Shown: positions 4,188 through 10,990 of the stretch, one piece after another
Layout: the number at the start of each line of letters is the position of its first letter
Numbering within the stretch: position 1 is the stretch's first letter
UHGV virus genome: UHGV-0112014
DNA from: a virus
Length of the DNA: 12,827 nt
Direction: 5' to 3' (one strand)
Notes under the pieces: model-generated
The model's input: the letters and a program-made list of their open reading frames with translations, nothing else
Told to the model about the DNA's origin: nothing
The model's database searches: none
Translations under genes and position numbers: made by a program

Positions 4188-4895
4188 GTGAGTATTTTCA
4201 GCAGCGTTGGTAGAACGTTGACCACCGCATTGTCATTTAACACGAAATCATTCACCAGCAACCTCATTAGCGACATTCTTGATAAAGCCATATCAGGCGG
4301 CGGGGTAAGCGGGAATTACAGTAGCGATATTGCCTACGGGGAAAATATTGTTGCTGCCGCTATGCGTATCCGTTATGCCCAGGGATGGCAATGGACAGTT
4401 GAAGTGGATGGCCTGAACGGCTTCGATATGTTCGTGAAGGATATCACGTACAGCAGTGGAAACATCGAGACAGAAAGCAAGGTGATCGGCAGCGTAGAAT
4501 TCAGCAAGCCAACCTATGTTAGCGCCGGACCGGTCACTATGACCGTGAGGGATACCGAAGATGGCAAGATCATGGACTGGTTCAAAGAACGTCGTTCTCG
4601 CGTAACAAATCCGGACGGAACAATAAACCTTCCTCCTGAATATCTGATGAAAATCCGTCTCTACCGGGTAACTCAGGACGGCGGAAAAGAACTGGAAGAA
4701 GAAATGCGCGTATTTCCTACGCAACTTGGGGAGATCACACGCTCACGTGATCAGGTATCAGAGTTCTTGTCATACCCAATCACTTTCCAGAAATACACAT
4801 CCGCAGGCTCAGGTGTTTCTGCTTTGGTCAACGGTGCCGCAGGTATGGCCACAAGTGCGTTAAAGGGGGCTATCAGTGGAGTGATCAAATTCTGA
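4188..4895 (+). CDS. Hypothetical tail-module protein (235 aa) with a Gly/Ala-rich C-terminus
   Basis: GTG start at 4188 with GGAGG at 4177-4181 (6-nt spacer); TGA stop at 4893-4895. Last gene of the first + strand block. Confidence 0.6.
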   Translation: MSIFSSVGRTLTTALSFNTKSFTSNLISDILDKAISGGGVSGNYSSDIAYGENIVAAAMRIRYAQGWQWTVEVDGLNGFDMFVKDITYSSGNIETESKVIGSVEFSKPTYVSAGPVTMTVRDTEDGKIMDWFKERRSRVTNPDGTINLPPEYLMKIRLYRVTQDGGKELEEEMRVFPTQLGEITRSRDQVSEFLSYPITFQKYTSAGSGVSALVNGAAGMATSALKGAISGVIKF

Positions 4896-4985
4896 GATGC
4901 TTTAATTATGTGTGCTGGCGGGATGATCATTTCCCGTCAGCAACCACGCCCCCAACGATAGCGGGTAGGGAAGGAAGCGCAATTT

Positions 4986-5230
4986 TGAGGGCATTTTTTA
5001 CATCATCAATCCATCTGTAATGATGGCATTATTTACACATTCCAATGTAATCAATAAGTTAATCTAACAAACGATTAAGGAAAAAAGCAATAAGAATGCC
5101 AGACACACACGATATAGATTGAGGGTAATTTTTACATAACCTTTACCTATCAATATGTTACATAAAAACATAAACTGCAAACGACAAGATACATGCGATT
5201 TAGATGTAAAAATTGCCCTCAATTGCCCTT
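4986..5230. repeat. Iteron-like repeats downstream of rep (incC-like): direct copies at 4986-5004 and 5120-5137, inverted copy at 5205-5222 plus a partial at 5223-5230
   Basis: TGAGGGCATTTTTTACATC, TGAGGGTAATTTTTACAT and the reverse complement ATGTAAAAATTGCCCTCAA share the TGAGGG(C/T)AA core of the upstream iterons. 5113-5137 and 5197-5222 form a head-to-head pair flanking an AT-rich spacer. Confidence 0.55.
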
Positions 5231-5561
5231 AAGACTGTTGATAGGTAAATTTTATCCTGGCAACTTTGCCGCCTTCCGTCACTTCTGAGAAGACTATTTT
5301 CATTTTTGTATTTTTTTCAATCTCTGCTACAGCCTTCGTTAAAAAACTTCTCTTAAATTCAGCATACCGCTGGTAGCTTTTTGGCAGCCCGTAACGCTCC
5401 CGCATCCATTCAACGCCAAGTATAGCGAAGCCGCTCCCATCATCCTTTCTATACTGGCATAAGGACTCATAAAGCCGCATAGAATAAGGGTTTGTCAGGC
5501 GAGACACTTCAGTAAAATTCAGCCTCGTGAACCTCTTATCAAGCAGAGTAAAAAACGGCAT
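5229..5561 (-). pseudogene. repE: C-terminal fragment of the repE-like initiator (WH2/iteron-binding region) downstream of the amber codon
   Basis: Sub-feature of the pseudogene above. In frame with the N-terminal fragment, with no convincing independent SD before the ATG at 5559-5561. Confidence 0.55.
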
Positions 5562-5585
5562 GAGATATGGATTCAGATGAATAAT

Positions 5586-5984
5586 CTAAGTCCCCCGGCG
5601 TGGTGAGTAAGCCTCCTTAATCATCCAGGGATAAGACTCATAACTGTCTTCTGATTCGGTTGATTCATCAGGGTTATATATCGTGACTTTCTTCTCACTA
5701 AGTCCGGAGATAGCTTTACGAATATCCTTGCTGGCTTCAGCAGAGGGCAAATTATACATCTCTGCATATTCGTTGACCGTCAACTCACAGGCTCCTGAAC
5801 CAAGAACGCCATCCTTAGAAGCATAGCGAAGTCTTCCCACCACAATAAACAACAGTCGCTTTTGGTCGCGTGTCAGATGATAAGCCGCCTCTGTGATCTC
5901 ATTAGCCTGCGCCAAGCTACGGCTAATTGGTGTCGCTGATTCAATCAGACTGACGGCTTTTGCCGTTAATTCCGCTCTGTTCAT
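5586..5984 (-). CDS. repE: N-terminal fragment of the repE-like initiator (132 aa, WH1/dimerisation region), terminated by the amber codon
   Basis: Sub-feature of the pseudogene above. It has its own start and plausible SD, so a truncated product could be made. Confidence 0.6.
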   Translation of the reverse strand: MNRAELTAKAVSLIESATPISRSLAQANEITEAAYHLTRDQKRLLFIVVGRLRYASKDGVLGSGACELTVNEYAEMYNLPSAEASKDIRKAISGLSEKKVTIYNPDESTESEDSYESYPWMIKEAYSPRRGT

Positions 5985-6008
5985 AACCCTGTGTGATCCT
6001 TCAAATGG

Positions 6009-6130
6009 TGAGGGCAATTTTTACATCCCTTTGAGGGCAATTACTACACCTTTTGAGGGCAAATCTTACACCTACTGAGGGCAAATCTTACACCTTAATA
6101 GCTTAATTGAGGGCAAATCTTACACCTTGC
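6009..6130. repeat. Origin iteron array: five direct repeats of about 22 bp (consensus TGAGGGCAAATCTTACACCT) immediately upstream of rep
   Basis: TGAGGGCAA cores at 6009, 6032, 6054, 6076 and 6108, giving spacings of 23, 22, 22 and 32 bp (about two helical turns). The last three copies are near-identical. The core resembles recalled F ori2/incC iterons (...AATTGCCCTCA in the other orientation). Confidence 0.8.
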
Positions 6131-6164
6131 TCCTCTACAAGCCGCGCCACGCTTGGCCTCTGCG

Positions 6165-6230
6165 ATGCCTAAAAAGGATCTAAAAATGATTAAAAATGGA
6201 AAAAGATTTATAAAAATACTCTGTGGATAT
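6165..6230. promoter_or_regulatory. AT-rich tract (candidate DNA-unwinding element) followed by a DnaA-box-like site TGTGGATAT (6222-6230)
   Basis: AAAAAGGATCTAAAAATGATTAAAAATGGAAAAAGATTTATAAAAATACT, then TGTGGATAT, which is 8/9 to the reverse-complement DnaA-box consensus TGTGGATAA. Sits between the iteron array and an inverted iteron copy. Confidence 0.5.
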
Positions 6231-6247
6231 GTGAATAGCGTCACTTA

Positions 6248-6268
6248 AGGTGTAAAAATCACCCTCAA
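6248..6268. repeat. Single inverted iteron copy (AGGTGTAAAAATCACCCTCAA) on the far side of the DnaA box
   Basis: Reverse complement TTGAGGGTGATTTTTACACCT matches the iteron consensus apart from a C-to-T change within the conserved core and a few mismatches in the body. Confidence 0.5.
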
Positions 6269-6373
6269 TAGTTGCTGTTCGATCGACGAAATCATCACTC
6301 AATCCCCCCCTCCGAAATCACACACTCCCTATCCTCTGGAAAATGAACAGACACCTGCTTATCGGAGGAATAC

Positions 6374-7195
6374 TTGAACATTCCAAAATTCCCATTGCCT
6401 TCCCGTCCTGAGACAGAAATTCAGTTCCACGCCCCAACCGTGAAGGATGCGCTGAAATATTCTGACCTGAACCCGGCAGAAGATGAGGCAACTACTACAG
6501 AGTACCTTAACTCTATGCAGGATGGTGAAATTAACGACAGTGCTTACTGGACAGTCCAGGATCGCAGAACTGCCCTTTGGTGGATATTTGTTAACTCGCG
6601 CCCCGATGCAGTAATGACCTACTCCTATGAGTGCAGTCACTGCGGTAATACGCATCATGCAGATATAAACCTGAGCGATCTGGCTCAAACAGTAGAGATA
6701 CTCACTGTACCGCCTTACATAAAAACCAACGTACCGGTAAACGGCGTACCAACCAACTGGATACTTAAACCATTAACCGGAAAAGGCGCTGAACTCCTTG
6801 AGCGTATGCGGGCATCACTTCCTGATATGAAAAGCCCAGAATACAGTGCGGGCGTGGCACGTATGCGAATTGCAGAACTCGCTTTATGTACCGCGCTTGA
6901 AGACGATCCAGAAGACTTCACGCAAGCCGCCAATCGTCGCTTTGACATCATTGAAAGCATGGCGCTCGAAACGGAATTTACTCCGCTTGTTGCTCGCATA
7001 CAGCTTATGCAAAAAGACCTACGCCACGGCCTGAAAATGTCTATTGAGAGAGGCAAAAGCCGCCTGATCCTGCCTCCGCAACGCTGCAAAAACGCTAAGG
7101 AGGGTGCAGACGTGACTACCACGCTGTACGCCCCATTTCTCAATAGAGAGTTTATCCCATCAATTAGATCTGAATGGATGGCTAACCATTATTAA
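6374..7195 (+). CDS. Hypothetical protein (273 aa) opening the second + strand tail/baseplate block; contains a CSHCGNTHH Cys/His motif
   Basis: TTG start at 6374 with GGAGG at 6364-6368 (5-nt spacer); TAA stop at 7193-7195. No family recognised. A tail-assembly or baseplate role is inferred from position only. Confidence 0.55.
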   Translation: MNIPKFPLPSRPETEIQFHAPTVKDALKYSDLNPAEDEATTTEYLNSMQDGEINDSAYWTVQDRRTALWWIFVNSRPDAVMTYSYECSHCGNTHHADINLSDLAQTVEILTVPPYIKTNVPVNGVPTNWILKPLTGKGAELLERMRASLPDMKSPEYSAGVARMRIAELALCTALEDDPEDFTQAANRRFDIIESMALETEFTPLVARIQLMQKDLRHGLKMSIERGKSRLILPPQRCKNAKEGADVTTTLYAPFLNREFIPSIRSEWMANHY

Positions 7196-7249
7196 CAACC
7201 TGACTCTGTATGGATATCAGCCCGTTAGTGACGTTGAACAATTGCCACA

Positions 7250-10200
7250 ATGGCGAGCACTCCATATGTCAAAAGCCCTGGAAGAAAAATACAAAGCTCA
7301 AGCCGGGAAACGTTGATCGCCGCTGGCAAAAGAGAGGTTATTTTGAAAGAGAATAAAGACCGCATCGCAATAATTGACGCTATTCAGGGGGCGAGCGCAC
7401 ACGAACTTAAGGCTCTTGCTGAGATAAAAGACGCGATTCTTTCTGGTGGGGTCGCCATAACTCAACAGGGAGGACAACAAGGTAAAGTTAGCAACAGGCT
7501 ATCCCGTAGGCGTAAAGACTACGGGCAAAACGCACCTGAAGTCGTCAGAGACGCTCAAGCTAATCCATATAAAAAACGCCTTCCGGCGAAAAAGGAGAGG
7601 GCGCTAATAAACCAGGACATAGATCGCTCTATCGTTGCAACTAACACACCAGAAAGTGTTCATTCTGTGCGATCACGCCAGACCATCAAAAGGTCGAAAG
7701 GTTCTATACCGGTAGCAGCTAATTCTACCTCTCTGCAACCACAATCCCCCCAAAGCCCAAAAGGCCAACTGCGGGATAGTAACGGGCGCTTTGTATCCCA
7801 GAAAAATAATGAGGATATAGCCAGAAAAAAAGAATGGCAGAACGCACGTAAGGCCGACGCAAAACTACAAGAAGGCTTTCTCCGGAAGCTGGGTTCTGTT
7901 ATGGGGATGGATGGAAATCAGTCCACCAGTGAAGAGTCTTTAACAAATGCCGCAGGTGTTGGGGCTGGTGGTCCGCTATGGATGGCGGCGCGTGGCATGT
8001 ATGACATTGCAAAAGAGATCACAGGGAAAGCAAAATCACTTAAGGAGTGGGTAGATAATTCACCAGACACCAAAGCAAAATCGCCAGCGATCACTTACCC
8101 GGCTGTAGCCAATGCTCAAAAAACAACCTCCGCAACAGCATTTAATAATGCTGTTGAGACAAAATCCGCACAAGCAGTAGAAGAGCAAACAAAAATTCTT
8201 CAGACCAATGACAACAAAATAATTGATGGTCTGGAAAATGTCTCCGACGAAGTAGCTAAGCTACGTAAATCAGTATCTTCTGGGAATAAGTTCGGCTTGA
8301 GTGATCTCTGGAGAAATCGAGCAAGCAGAAGAAATAAAATCAATATTGGCGATCAGGCTGGTAAAAATAAACGGAGCAAACCGAAAAGGAAAGGTCGCAA
8401 TCTTGGGGGAAAAGCCCTTTCCGTTGGCGAAAAAGTCGCTGCCGGAACCGCTGCTGTTGGCGCTGGTGCCGGAGCTGCAAAGACTGTTAAAACAAAGGTT
8501 AGTAAAGCCAAAGACATCAGCACCACAAGCGACGTATCTAAGGGTATTGCTAAAGAAACAAAAAACACAGCAAAGGCAGTTAAGCCAGCAGGTGTTGTTG
8601 CCGAAGAGGCCACAATTAAAACAGGTGAGACTGTTTCAAAGAAAAAAACCGAATCTGTAGCCCTCAAAAGTGCTGCAAAAATAGGCGTTAAATCAGCTGC
8701 ATCTACAGCGGCAAGAGCTATCCCTATTATCGGGTCGTTGGCAATGGCTGGATATGACGCTATAGACGGTTACACAGATACAGATGCGCAAAAAGCGGCC
8801 TTTGGCTTAAGTGATGATGATATTGTATCCACACAGCAAAAAACCGCTTATGCAACAGCTAATGTGCTTGATATGGGCGGCTTAGTGTCGGGTGCAACCA
8901 ACCTAATAGGTAAAGGAATCTCTGCGTTAGGCTTCGAAAGGGCAGGTGAGAAACTTCAGAATTTTGATACCGAAGATATTGCTCGTGGTGTTAATGGTGC
9001 TGTAGATATCACTAAATCTGCTTTTGGTAGCCTCAAGGATACATTTTTATCCTCTGACGAGAGCACGAAGCAGGTAAAAAAAGCAGTTGAAGATGGCACA
9101 AAAAAGACTGTCGATGCGATTCATTCTTTAGGTGAGCAGCTACAAGGCGGGCGTGATGGTGAAGATGGTGTTGGTGAGCACGGGTATACTTCCCCGGCTG
9201 AATTTAATGCGCCTGCCAGCAATACCATTGCAGCGGATCTGAATATTGGCGGGAGCAACGCTAAAAACCGTAATTACCGGAATAATAATCTCGGCAACCT
9301 TGTTTTCGCTAATCAGGAAGGGGCGACACTGGAAGCGCCAAATGCAAAAGGTGAACAGCGTTTTGCTCGATTCAACACGCCTGAAGAAGGGATCAGGGCG
9401 CTGGCAAACCAGGTGTCAAGTTATTATAACGGCACCAGTGCCGCTGCTGGGTATCAGAAGTTACAGACGGTATCCAGTATTATTTCCAAATGGGCACCCC
9501 CAAAGGAGAACAATACTAATCAATATATCGATAACGTCAGCAAATATCTTGGTGTCTCGCCTAATGAAAAAATAGACGTCAGCAACCCGGAGGTTATGAC
9601 GCAATTAGTTCGTGCTATTGCGACGAAAGAAGGCGGAAACCCTGCGGTTAATAATGAGTTTATTAAGAATGCTCTTGGGGCGTTCAATGCAAATACCGGT
9701 CGTTGGGAGGGGCGCTTCTCCGATGAAACATTGGCGCGGCTTAATAAAATTCAGAAAGAGAATGGCGGTCAGCTAATTGCTCGTGATTCGCAATATAGCG
9801 TTGGTCGCAAGGTGAGATATGCTGATGGTACATCTCCGGCACAACCTGTATTGAATGCAGTCCCAACAGCAACACCTAAGCCAATTGAGGTTGCACAACA
9901 TGCCCAGGCAGCAAAAAAGCCACAAAAAACAGGTAACCGACCACAACCGATTATTCCAGAGAACGCTGATGTTAATACTGACTCGCCATCGAGTTTGCTT
10001 GAGCGGTTAATCGCCATAAATGAAAGCGGTATCAGTGGAGTAAGTGATTTATTTGGCGGCGCGGCTACCAGTCTTGCTGGAACAAGTCTGGACTTGGTGA
10101 AGGATTTTGCGTCGGATACTTCATTTGGTTCTATATCTTCGCTTTCAGAAAAGGCGAAGGGAATGGATCAGGCTCTGACTGAAAAAATATCCGGCTTAAC

Positions 10201-10990
10201 CGGAAAATCTTTTGGATTCAAAAAAGCACCACAGGTAGCTGATATCAGGGAGGCTATACAAAAAAGGCCGACACCTGAACGCGATATGTCTTCGGTCGAT
10301 CTTCTCTCTGACGCTTCACAGCCAACAGAGAATAAAAAAACACCTGTAAACTCAAAAGGGATTCCGGTCTATGACAATGGCAATAAGGTAATAGACGGCG
10401 AAGATAAGGGATTTCTTGGTTCTTTGTTTGATTCGTCATTAACAGGCATAAAGCGCATTGGTTCGGCTGTATTACCTGCAATTGGTGATAACGTTTCACA
10501 GCTTGTTGGTGGCATCGATGGCACTGGCATATTAAATGATTTTGTCTATCAGGCTACAGGGCAGAATTCAACAATCGCCAGGGCGATTAGCCCACTTACA
10601 AAAAGTGCTGGTGGTTGGCTAAATAATGGCATTCAACAAACTGCCGATAGCATCAAAGGAATATCAACTGAGGCAAATAACGCCATATTTGGCACTGCGT
10701 CAGCCGTGCAGGAACCTTTTCTTGCTATGCCGCCACAGCTTCCCACTGTAACCGATCTTGCTCGAAGCGGAATAAGACAACCATTAACTACTGACACTGC
10801 AAATAACGATCCTGCTATGTTGAAGGCGCTGGATAACGTCTGTTCTATCCTGAAAGACCTTCTGAATGTGAACAAAAATAACACAAAAGGCGATCCAGAT
10901 AAGGTTGTCAAAACATCGCAGCCGCAGCCGCGACCACGTGCGAGTACAACTATTAATGACCCGTCGCTGGATGCGCTGCTGGAGGATTAA
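7250..10990 (+). CDS. Tail tape-measure-like protein (1246 aa) with an embedded conserved globular domain (about aa 678-800)
   Basis: Long ORF directly upstream of gp25-like and J-like baseplate genes. It has a basic low-complexity N-terminus, Ala/Gly/Lys-rich central segments with hydrophobic stretches (AIPIIGSLAMAGYDAIDG), and a compact domain (NNLGNLVFANQEG...FARFNTPEEGIRALANQ...KWAPPKENNTNQYIDNV...ATKEGG). No SD precedes the ATG at 7250, so the exact start is uncertain. Confidence 0.65.
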   Translation: MASTPYVKSPGRKIQSSSRETLIAAGKREVILKENKDRIAIIDAIQGASAHELKALAEIKDAILSGGVAITQQGGQQGKVSNRLSRRRKDYGQNAPEVVRDAQANPYKKRLPAKKERALINQDIDRSIVATNTPESVHSVRSRQTIKRSKGSIPVAANSTSLQPQSPQSPKGQLRDSNGRFVSQKNNEDIARKKEWQNARKADAKLQEGFLRKLGSVMGMDGNQSTSEESLTNAAGVGAGGPLWMAARGMYDIAKEITGKAKSLKEWVDNSPDTKAKSPAITYPAVANAQKTTSATAFNNAVETKSAQAVEEQTKILQTNDNKIIDGLENVSDEVAKLRKSVSSGNKFGLSDLWRNRASRRNKINIGDQAGKNKRSKPKRKGRNLGGKALSVGEKVAAGTAAVGAGAGAAKTVKTKVSKAKDISTTSDVSKGIAKETKNTAKAVKPAGVVAEEATIKTGETVSKKKTESVALKSAAKIGVKSAASTAARAIPIIGSLAMAGYDAIDGYTDTDAQKAAFGLSDDDIVSTQQKTAYATANVLDMGGLVSGATNLIGKGISALGFERAGEKLQNFDTEDIARGVNGAVDITKSAFGSLKDTFLSSDESTKQVKKAVEDGTKKTVDAIHSLGEQLQGGRDGEDGVGEHGYTSPAEFNAPASNTIAADLNIGGSNAKNRNYRNNNLGNLVFANQEGATLEAPNAKGEQRFARFNTPEEGIRALANQVSSYYNGTSAAAGYQKLQTVSSIISKWAPPKENNTNQYIDNVSKYLGVSPNEKIDVSNPEVMTQLVRAIATKEGGNPAVNNEFIKNALGAFNANTGRWEGRFSDETLARLNKIQKENGGQLIARDSQYSVGRKVRYADGTSPAQPVLNAVPTATPKPIEVAQHAQAAKKPQKTGNRPQPIIPENADVNTDSPSSLLERLIAINESGISGVSDLFGGAATSLAGTSLDLVKDFASDTSFGSISSLSEKAKGMDQALTEKISGLTGKSFGFKKAPQVADIREAIQKRPTPERDMSSVDLLSDASQPTENKKTPVNSKGIPVYDNGNKVIDGEDKGFLGSLFDSSLTGIKRIGSAVLPAIGDNVSQLVGGIDGTGILNDFVYQATGQNSTIARAISPLTKSAGGWLNNGIQQTADSIKGISTEANNAIFGTASAVQEPFLAMPPQLPTVTDLARSGIRQPLTTDTANNDPAMLKALDNVCSILKDLLNVNKNNTKGDPDKVVKTSQPQPRPRASTTINDPSLDALLED

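Follow-up and report, generated by a model that had tools for sequence, protein, structure and literature searches.

The probable iteron origin of a D6-type phage-plasmid, a relative of mini-F ori2

Identity and genomic setting of the origin

Positions 6008–6268 of the window, by which we mean the whole 12,827-nucleotide stretch analysed here (UHGV-0112014), very probably form the cis-acting plasmid-maintenance origin of a D6-type RepE-like replicon, a relative of mini-F ori2 that most likely works in the same way. Followed along the minus strand, on which rep is read, the region comprises a single inverted iteron, two DnaA boxes, a 54-bp AT-rich element, a GC-rich spacer, five iterons, a 23-nucleotide leader and the rep gene. 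This combination of a Rep_3 gene, repeats of ~17–22 bp, an AT-rich tract and DnaA boxes is that of an iteron-controlled theta origin. The origin architecture proposed by a first-pass annotation of the same DNA is borne out by a column-by-column alignment with mini-F ori2 and with two independent related origins from Pantoea and Erwinia, and by the RepE-like gene that adjoins it.

The window is a human-gut metagenome contig (ENA ERZ1309120, NODE_1072; k-mer coverage of 2.7x according to the contig name) and represents a D6-type (P1-like, P1-group 2) phage-plasmid. The replicon is flanked by P1-like tail and baseplate genes (sheath, tube, pmgB, sit and baseplate) and is typed by MOB-suite as rep_cluster_1704. 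It is 92.2% identical to phage D6 and 98.8–99.2% identical to the E. coli plasmid pPSS-10_3. At 92–99% identity, the same origin recurs in D6 and in about 120 plasmids from E. coli, Salmonella and Shigella, where it invariably occupies the interval between tub (tail tube) and pmgB; complete E. coli genomes gave 103 matches, every one of them on a plasmid. The GenBank and RefSeq records of D6 annotate coding sequences only, with no origin features, and a literature search found no experimental paper on the D6-type replicon. For the D6-like pYU39_89, a “repB associated with iteron sequences” has been mentioned (PMC6799933). Given its occurrence in D6 and over 120 plasmids, and the published mention of its iterons, the origin is the already known replicon of D6-type phage-plasmids and a relative of F ori2.

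The tub–pmgB slot can hold more than one kind of replicon. In pB2C_96 it is occupied by a different one, of the P1 RepA/oriR type, and comparison with this element places the bounds of the RepE-like cassette at roughly 4924–6317, a length of ~1.4 kb. A DNA-level comparison run for the insertion bounds, distant mode included, left P1 unmatched and returned matches to D6 only. A two-iteron scar of P1 type lies at 4908–4947 and is evidence for the displacement of a P1-type replicon from this slot.

The rep gene and its product

The adjoining gene, rep (5229–5984, minus strand; ATG at 5984, stop codon at 5229–5231), has 251 codons and encodes a predicted RepE-like initiator of the Rep_3 type (WH1 and WH2). 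Its product matches Pfam Rep3_N with 103.5 bits and Rep3_C with 56.8 bits, both above the cut-offs. RepE chains are its best relatives in the PDB (E about 1e-73), and the structures of pi and pPS10 RepA are matched as well. The protein is ~49% identical to F RepE, and the nearest NCBIfam model, the RepE equivalog NF010305, gives 280 bits against a cut-off of 342; we therefore regard it as a close relative of RepE, but not as RepE. The label that PGAP gives to the D6-type Rep is likewise “RepB family”, not RepE.

Two stretches of the protein were compared with their F counterparts. The helix SAEASKDIR is nearly identical in F RepE, whereas SYQRYAEFKRSF has diverged (F: SYQRMPDFRRRF). From the winged-helix architecture of RepE, we infer that the two halves of the iteron may be read by different Rep domains, in which case the pairing of one conserved with one diverged stretch would match that of one conserved with one diverged iteron half-site.

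The five-iteron array

A repeat search identified five direct repeats, 76–100% identical to one another, that start at 6008, 6031, 6053, 6075 and 6107, giving the spacing of 23/22/22/32 bp that had been proposed. The exact 9-mer TGAGGGCAA recurs five times on the plus strand, at 6009, 6032, 6054, 6076 and 6108. Allowing up to one mismatch, the window contains 12 such copies against 3.4 ± 1.8 expected, a number that none of 200 shuffles reached. We also built a 22-nucleotide position weight matrix (PWM) from the five origin iterons and compared its scores with those in 200 shuffles of the whole window. All five iterons lie on the minus strand. Iteron 1, the closest to rep (6008–6029), and iteron 5 (6107–6128) were found by both the repeat search and the PWM, while iterons 2 (6031–6052), 3 (6053–6074) and 4 (6075–6096) scored 32.4, 34.7 and 34.7 bits, respectively. 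Iterons 4 and 5 are separated by a 10-bp spacer (6097–6106), whose length is fixed and 80% of whose columns vary among relatives.

Two parts of the first-pass description need refinement. The repeats had been called 22-bp iterons; 22 bp is indeed the period, but the constrained unit within it is only ~19 bp long (GGTGTAAGATTTGCCCTCA, read in the rep direction), and the variation found in the iterons of relatives sits on the flanking bases. The repeats had also been called helically phased, which is approximately correct, although successive sites drift around the helix because 22 bp corresponds to 2.1 turns. The iteron sites of mini-F ori2, spaced at 21/33/22 bp, drift likewise. The array was correctly placed directly upstream of the rep start, with 23 nucleotides between iteron 1 and the ATG.

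The rep promoter

A scan for sigma-70 and terminator consensus sequences detected no promoter on the rep strand, and a relaxed scan of that strand yielded only a weak extended −10 element, TGTAAAAAT, which lies inside iteron 1 and faces rep. Because the leader (5985–6007) is only 23 nucleotides long and the ~95-nucleotide promoter/operator segment of F is absent, the rep promoter must be located in or upstream of the iterons. The geometry thus agrees with the earlier proposal that the promoter would overlap the iterons. In P1, the repA promoter lies within the iterons and is autoregulated by iteron occupancy.

The AT-rich tract and the DnaA boxes

Beyond the iterons, a GC-rich spacer (6129–6167; 33% AT), which contains GTGGCGCGGC, leads to an AT-rich tract of 54 bp (6168–6221). 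The tract is 80% A+T, compared with 54% for the window, and the least stable 40-mer of the entire 12.8 kb (6178–6218, z = 3.8) lies within it. These values uphold the AT-rich tract of the first-pass annotation, and we consider it a putative DNA unwinding element. At its spacer-proximal end, a 13-mer-like element on the minus strand, GATCCTTTTTAGG (6168–6180), aligns with the F 13-mer GATCTTCTTTTTT.

The single DnaA-box-like site that had been proposed is present at 6222–6230 (minus strand), but it is one of two overlapping boxes, as in F. This proximal box, ATATCCACA, matches TTATCCACA at 8 of 9 positions and is invariant among relatives. The distal box, CTATTCACA (6230–6238, minus strand), overlaps it, is degenerate (7/9 against the same consensus) and aligns with the first box of the F tandem pair as its homologue.

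An inverted iteron beyond the DnaA boxes

A single iteron in the opposite orientation, AAGGTGTAAAAATCACCCTCAA, is located at 6247–6268 on the plus strand, 8 bp past the distal DnaA box. It scores 25.4 bits, above the best match in any of the 200 whole-window shuffles (23.2), so the element reported by the first-pass annotation does exist. Its core is the TCACCC variant, shared with iteron 2 of F and iterons 1–2 of Pantoea. PWM scans with lineage-specific matrices detected no inverted iteron upstream of the DnaA boxes in F, Pantoea or Erwinia, in agreement with the earlier remark that it stands outside the mini-F layout.

The element is strictly conserved. None of its 22 columns varies across the 18 distinct sequences of relatives, nor does any of the 8 bp between it and the distal box (0/8). 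Together these make 0 of 30 variable columns, compared with 22 of 49 at the adjacent cassette edge (6269–6317; Fisher p = 3.5e-6). On the simplest view, the inverted iteron would be one more Rep site, able to bridge the unwinding element by pairing with the direct array; a role as operator for an outward promoter would be a weaker alternative.

Further iterons downstream of and inside rep

Scanning the contig for more iteron copies, a check that the first-pass annotation had proposed, turned up additional sites both downstream of rep and within it. The strongest of these is an inverted downstream control iteron (5201–5222, plus strand; 31.0 bits), which by alignment is the +810(−) copy of the relatives. 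A distal downstream iteron, ATGATGTAAAAAATGCCCTCAA (4985–5006, minus strand; 23.9 bits), lies about +1026 from the rep ATG, is oriented as the five origin iterons are and is kept in 20/20 relatives. A weak one, GTTATGTAAAAATTACCCTCAA (5119–5140, minus strand), has the same orientation and is found at +892 in most relatives; its score of 18.2 barely exceeds the 99th percentile of the shuffle maxima (17.7). The window has three downstream iterons and its relatives have five, three of which, +752(−), +778(+) and +810(−), directly follow rep. Judged by their position, the downstream iterons are the counterpart of F incC.

Inside rep, an iteron-like site (5741–5762, minus strand; 21.7 bits), again oriented as the five origin iterons are, covers the codons for E-M-Y-N-L-P-S. 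It is conserved at synonymous positions, and its 20-nucleotide stretch GAGATGTATAATTTGCCCTC is the longest run in rep that is identical in the D6-type, Pantoea and Erwinia genes.

Conservation of the origin among relatives

Column variability was counted across 18 distinct D6-type sequences. Each iteron has 1–3 variable columns out of 22, almost all at edge bases. The rep leader has none in 23, the AT tract 4 in 54 and the DnaA segment 2 in 17, both of the latter (6235 and 6237) in the distal box. The spacer between iterons 4 and 5 (8/10) and the GC spacer (13/39) vary far more freely. The stretch 5985–6307 is free of indels in these 18 relatives, with indels starting at 6308.

These column counts show that the five iterons, the inverted iteron, the AT tract and the proximal DnaA box are under purifying selection, and the spacers, free in sequence and fixed in length, behave as expected of a putative array of protein-binding sites. 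Coding does not explain the conservation, since only short spurious open reading frames cross the origin, and an Rfam scan of 4800–6500 matched no family.

Lesions specific to this contig

Two lesions distinguish the rep region of the window from that of 20 relatives (D6, pPSS-10_3, 17 IMG/VR loci and one GTDB contig). The first is an in-frame TAG at rep codon 133 (5586–5588), which is TAC (Tyr) in 20/20 relatives. The second, located by alignment with the relatives, is a 48-bp deletion whose junction (5215–5232) shows AATTGCC microhomology. About 1.5 iterons are lost with it: all of the +778(+) copy and, from the +752(−) copy that adjoins the stop codon of rep, the 5′ part. Of 18 distinct sequences, the window alone has this gap, which splits all 95 complete E. 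coli matches into two BLAST pieces.

Both lesions recur in a second ENA contig, a MEGAHIT assembly from human gut (ERR1190924) that is 100% identical over 4722 bp and that may share its sample or reads with the window contig. An exact-pattern search for the amber allele returned no matches in GTDB genomes, IMG/VR or JGI metagenomes. Relative to D6, rep differs at 46 synonymous and 3 non-synonymous codons, the stop included, and the other genes of the window are all full length. Since rep is otherwise conserved and the neighbouring genes are intact, the amber lesion is either very recent or a low-coverage error. The origin is thus intact in cis, and its initiator appears either to be null or to have been misread at 2.7x coverage. 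With rep interrupted, this copy of the origin may be silent.

Two other readings of the interrupted gene were considered and rejected. A Rep made in two pieces, WH1 and WH2, by a translational restart at Met142 is unlikely, as no Shine–Dalgarno sequence precedes the ATG of this codon and part of WH1 is lost at the break. Stop-codon reassignment is opposed by the other open reading frames of the window, which end normally, and by the Tyr at codon 133 in all relatives.

Proposed mechanism and significance

By homology with the established RepE/ori2 model, the best-supported reading is an F-like initiation pathway, in which Rep monomers would occupy the five iterons while host DnaA binds the invariant proximal box. 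Together, and with HU or IHF, Rep and DnaA would melt the AT-rich element around the 13-mer-like GATC motif, after which the DnaB helicase could be loaded. Transcription of rep would start from a promoter buried in the proximal iterons and be autoregulated by iteron occupancy, a P1 repA-style control that we favour given the lack of a separate inverted-repeat operator like that of F. The downstream iterons would brake copy number through Rep-mediated pairing with the origin iterons (handcuffing or looping), and the single inverted iteron is probably a further brake of this kind.

A more specific proposal joins several of these features. It holds that the inverted iteron and the intragenic site are lineage-specific Rep-binding control sites and that the rep-null, ori-intact allele is real; taken as a whole, we consider it unlikely. 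An intra-origin loop would form as Rep bound at 6247–6268 pairs with the direct iterons on the other side of the unwinding element, giving the compact phage-borne 1.4-kb cassette the copy-number braking that the Pantoea and Erwinia replicons would obtain from 8–15 downstream iterons. The allele would then be the mark of a phage-plasmid able to persist in the gut with no initiator of its own.

In E. coli, Salmonella and Shigella, phage-plasmids of the D6 type are common, and it is this cassette that keeps them plasmids. Knowing the origin base by base helps with annotation, replicon typing and the prediction of incompatibility, and leaves the current understanding of iteron replicons unchanged. 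The invariant inverted iteron, the intragenic iteron-like site, the P1-type scar and the rep-null allele may be previously undescribed. If the lesions are real, either this origin depends on Rep provided in trans or the element has ceased to be maintained as a plasmid; a real amber allele would be a natural case of a phage-plasmid losing its initiator and keeping its origin.

Alternative readings

The alternative that weighs most concerns the state of the origin. If the lesions are real and no functional Rep is made, the origin would be a very recent relic, the element persisting by integration in another replicon, by lytic growth or through the Rep of a co-resident relative. The stop at a codon that is TAC in every relative, the deletion found in the window sequence alone and the 100% identical contig produced by another assembler all speak for this reading, as do the full-length remaining genes of the window and a published discussion of integrated P1-like elements that no longer require a replicase (PMC10879196). 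Against it stand the k-mer coverage of just 2.7x, the possible derivation of both assemblies from the same reads and the absence of the amber allele from the three databases searched. Moreover, with 46 synonymous against 3 non-synonymous differences and every cis element intact, any inactivation would have to be extremely recent. On balance, we find a decaying origin quite conceivable, while leaning slightly against it.

The remaining alternatives concern function. The inverted iteron could act mainly as an operator, with bound Rep repressing an outward promoter into pmgB and sit, so that the late morphogenesis genes are insulated from origin-proximal transcription, and with no part in initiation or handcuffing. 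The best promoter candidate of the relaxed scan in this region does point outwards (plus strand, 6231–6259: GTGAAT, 17 nucleotides, TGTAAAAAT); its extended −10 falls inside the inverted iteron, and iteron 1 holds the mirror-image motif facing rep. Yet the candidate scores below the threshold of the consensus scan, its −35 matches at only 3 of 6 positions, pmgB starts 105 nucleotides farther on, across the poorly conserved cassette edge, and a P1-type cassette occupies the same slot without any such element. We therefore hold a predominantly operator role to be improbable. Far less probable still is that the array is no origin at all and instead serves as a partition centromere or as an operator array for a transcription factor, lying next to rep by chance. 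Centromeres, too, have tandem repeats of ~20 bp, but a centromere has no use for an AT tract and DnaA boxes, D6-type elements carry separate partition genes (PMC6799933), the iteron sequence is common to F, and the region is homologous, element by element, to the experimentally defined F ori2. A plasmid-maintenance origin related to mini-F ori2 is the reading that we retain.

Comparison with known replicons

The closest systems are the D6-type elements themselves. D6 (orf42), pYU39_89 and pPSS-10_3 carry the same element, with iteron positions identical relative to the rep ATG; unlike the window, these D6-like plasmid prophages lack the TAG at codon 133 and retain the 48 bp of the downstream iteron cluster.

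Functional analogy is all that links the origin to the P1 oriR/RepA/incC–incA (IncY) and pO111_2 (p0111-type) replicons. As in the P1 type, five origin iterons abut rep, DnaA boxes and a GC spacer are present, control iterons follow downstream and, because the five iterons abut rep, the promoter would lie within them. The 19-bp P1 oriR iterons (ATGTGTGCTGGAGGG) are unrelated in sequence, and P1 has GATC heptamers instead of a plain AT tract. P1 oriR/IncY iterons and GATC heptamers are absent from 6008–6268, the scar at 4908–4947 being the only match. The PlasmidFinder type p0111 was considered and rejected: the RepB of pO111_2 (AP010962) is unrelated, P1-RepA-like and encoded next to parAB, its comparison with the D6-type Rep gives no significant similarity (blastp E = 0.045), and the cassette has no blastn match in pO111_2. 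The origin is homologous to F ori2 and belongs to neither IncY nor p0111.

The resemblance to mini-F extends over the whole origin. In F, whose layout we took from the sequence of NC_002483, tandem DnaA boxes are followed by an AT tract with a GATC 13-mer, a GC spacer and four iterons, TGTGACAAATTGCCCT(C/T), at 21/33/22-bp spacing; a ~95-nucleotide promoter/operator segment, repE and five inverted incC iterons come next. The mini-F ori2 layout, including the 13-mer, has been described (PMC13028717). The window, D6, Pantoea pAPP145_3, Erwinia aeris and F align collinearly from the DnaA boxes to the start codon, as seen, for instance, in GCTATTCACATATCCACAGAGTATTTTTATAA of the window against GTTATCCACTTATCCACGGGGATATTTTTATAA of F and in TTTTTAGATCCTTTTTAGG against TTTTTAGATCTTCTTTTTTAG. 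The D6-type origin and mini-F have in common the order of elements, iterons of ~19 bp with a 21–22-bp period and one 32–33-bp gap, two DnaA boxes, an AT region with a 13-mer, incC-like iterons after rep, and initiators of the same two-winged-helix fold family. They also have in common the iteron 3′ part AAATTGCCCTCA and the TCACCC variant. The first-pass remark that the core resembles the F ori2 iterons is accordingly supported, with 11–13 of 18 positions identical, except at the TGTGAC end, which differs.

The two replicons are nevertheless distinct. Mini-F has four origin iterons and the D6 type five; the RepFIA iteron TGTGACAAATTGCCCTCA does not occur in the window array, (G/A)TGTAA replacing its TGTGAC end; and the D6-type Rep, at 49% identity, falls short of the RepE equivalog (280 against 342 bits). 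The distal DnaA box is degenerate, unlike that of mini-F, and an extra inverted iteron lies beyond the boxes. Downstream iterons are fewer and of mixed orientation (−, +, −, +, +) in the D6 type, whereas F has five in uniform orientation. The inverted-repeat operator of mini-F, bound by the RepE dimer, falls in an alignment gap for the D6-type, Pantoea and Erwinia origins. With Rep below the equivalog cut-off and the TGTGAC half not conserved, details such as dimer-operator control cannot be transferred from F.

Outside the D6 type, Pantoea sp. App145 pAPP145_3 and an Erwinia aeris contig encode Rep proteins 63% and 60% identical, respectively. In both origins, five iterons of the form (A/G)TGTAGAAATTGCCCTCA, spaced at 22 bp, immediately precede rep. 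Tandem DnaA boxes and an AT tract are again present, an F-type operator is again missing, and the intragenic iteron-like 20-mer is shared. These origins differ in having no inverted iteron beyond the boxes and in carrying from 8 to ~15 downstream copies, uniformly inverted, and these replicons reside on large plasmids, not in phage.

Alternative replicons between tub and pmgB

In D6-type phage-plasmids, the intergenic slot between the tail-tube gene tub and pmgB houses alternative replicons. Most members carry the RepE-like cassette, but pB2C_96 (L027, positions 925–2289) and NZ_CP044179 contain a complete P1-type replicon instead, in which five ATGTGTGCTG...GGG iterons are accompanied by GATC repeats and a DnaA box. 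When the window is compared with pB2C_96, homology is sharply lost at 4923 and returns at 6318, which places the RepE-like cassette at roughly 4924–6317 of the window.

Directly past the tub stop codon, we identified a near-perfect iteron of the P1 RepA/oriR type, ATGTGTGCTGGCGGGAT, on the plus strand at 4908–4924 (27.8/29.5 bits; best shuffle, 15.5). A degenerate inverted partner lies on the minus strand at 4931–4947, separated from the first copy by 6 bp (TGATCA). The pair is kept in D6 and other relatives; it looks like what is left of a P1-type replicon that gave way to the RepE-like cassette. In the window's own origin, the GC-rich spacer that separates the iterons from the AT-rich tract contains the motif GTGGCGCGGC (6141–6150, minus strand). 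The same motif stands at the corresponding position in the P1-type origins of pB2C_96 and pO111_2, although these are unrelated to the window's origin; its recurrence may be due to chance, a host-factor site in common or the history of recombination.

Lesions in and downstream of rep

Codon 133 of rep is an in-frame TAG (5586–5588, minus strand) that leaves two ORFs, one of 132 aa and one of 110 aa; the codon is TAC (Tyr) in all 20 relatives compared. Coverage of the window's contig, which bears on this call, is only 2.7×. The TAG was found again in a second ENA assembly that carries both lesions (L005). Scans of GTDB, IMG/VR and JGI gave no match to the change. Downstream of rep, a 48-bp deletion flanked by AATTGCC microhomologies (junction at window ~5215–5232, corresponding to 6228–6275 of the undeleted relative L001) takes out one downstream iteron entirely and a second in part. 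In a comparison with 18 distinct relatives and with 95 complete plasmids of E. coli, this deletion was seen in the window sequence only.

Promoter-like motifs within the iterons

Two iterons contain the extended −10-like motif TGTAAAAAT: iteron 1, where it is directed toward rep (6017–6025, minus strand), and the inverted iteron, where it is directed toward pmgB (6251–6259, plus strand). Iterons 3–5 have TGTAAGATT in its place. Both sites score under the threshold of a consensus promoter scan. They may represent divergent candidate promoters occluded by Rep.

Possible variable segment in the sit-like tail gene

The sit-like tail transglycosylase ORF (7250–10990, plus strand) encodes 1246 aa in the ORF listing, compared with ~1260 aa in D6 and ~1265 aa in pPSS-10_3; the contig's own gene call places the start later, giving 1215 aa. 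BLAST against pPSS-10_3 revealed seven gap openings within 5221–8456, a stretch covering the start of this gene. Because the reading frame stays open despite these gaps, the alignment suggests a variable, repeat-rich segment.

An iteron-like site inside rep

Within rep, the iteron-like 20-mer GAGATGTATAATTTGCCCTC (5741–5762, minus strand) codes for E-M-Y-N-L-P-S. Among the D6-type, Pantoea and Erwinia lineages, it forms the longest three-way identical nucleotide run in the gene, at 20 nt against 11 for the runner-up, and only 21% of conserved degenerate rep codons are identical across all three. This conservation suggests a Rep-binding site maintained within the gene. F does not have the 20-mer.
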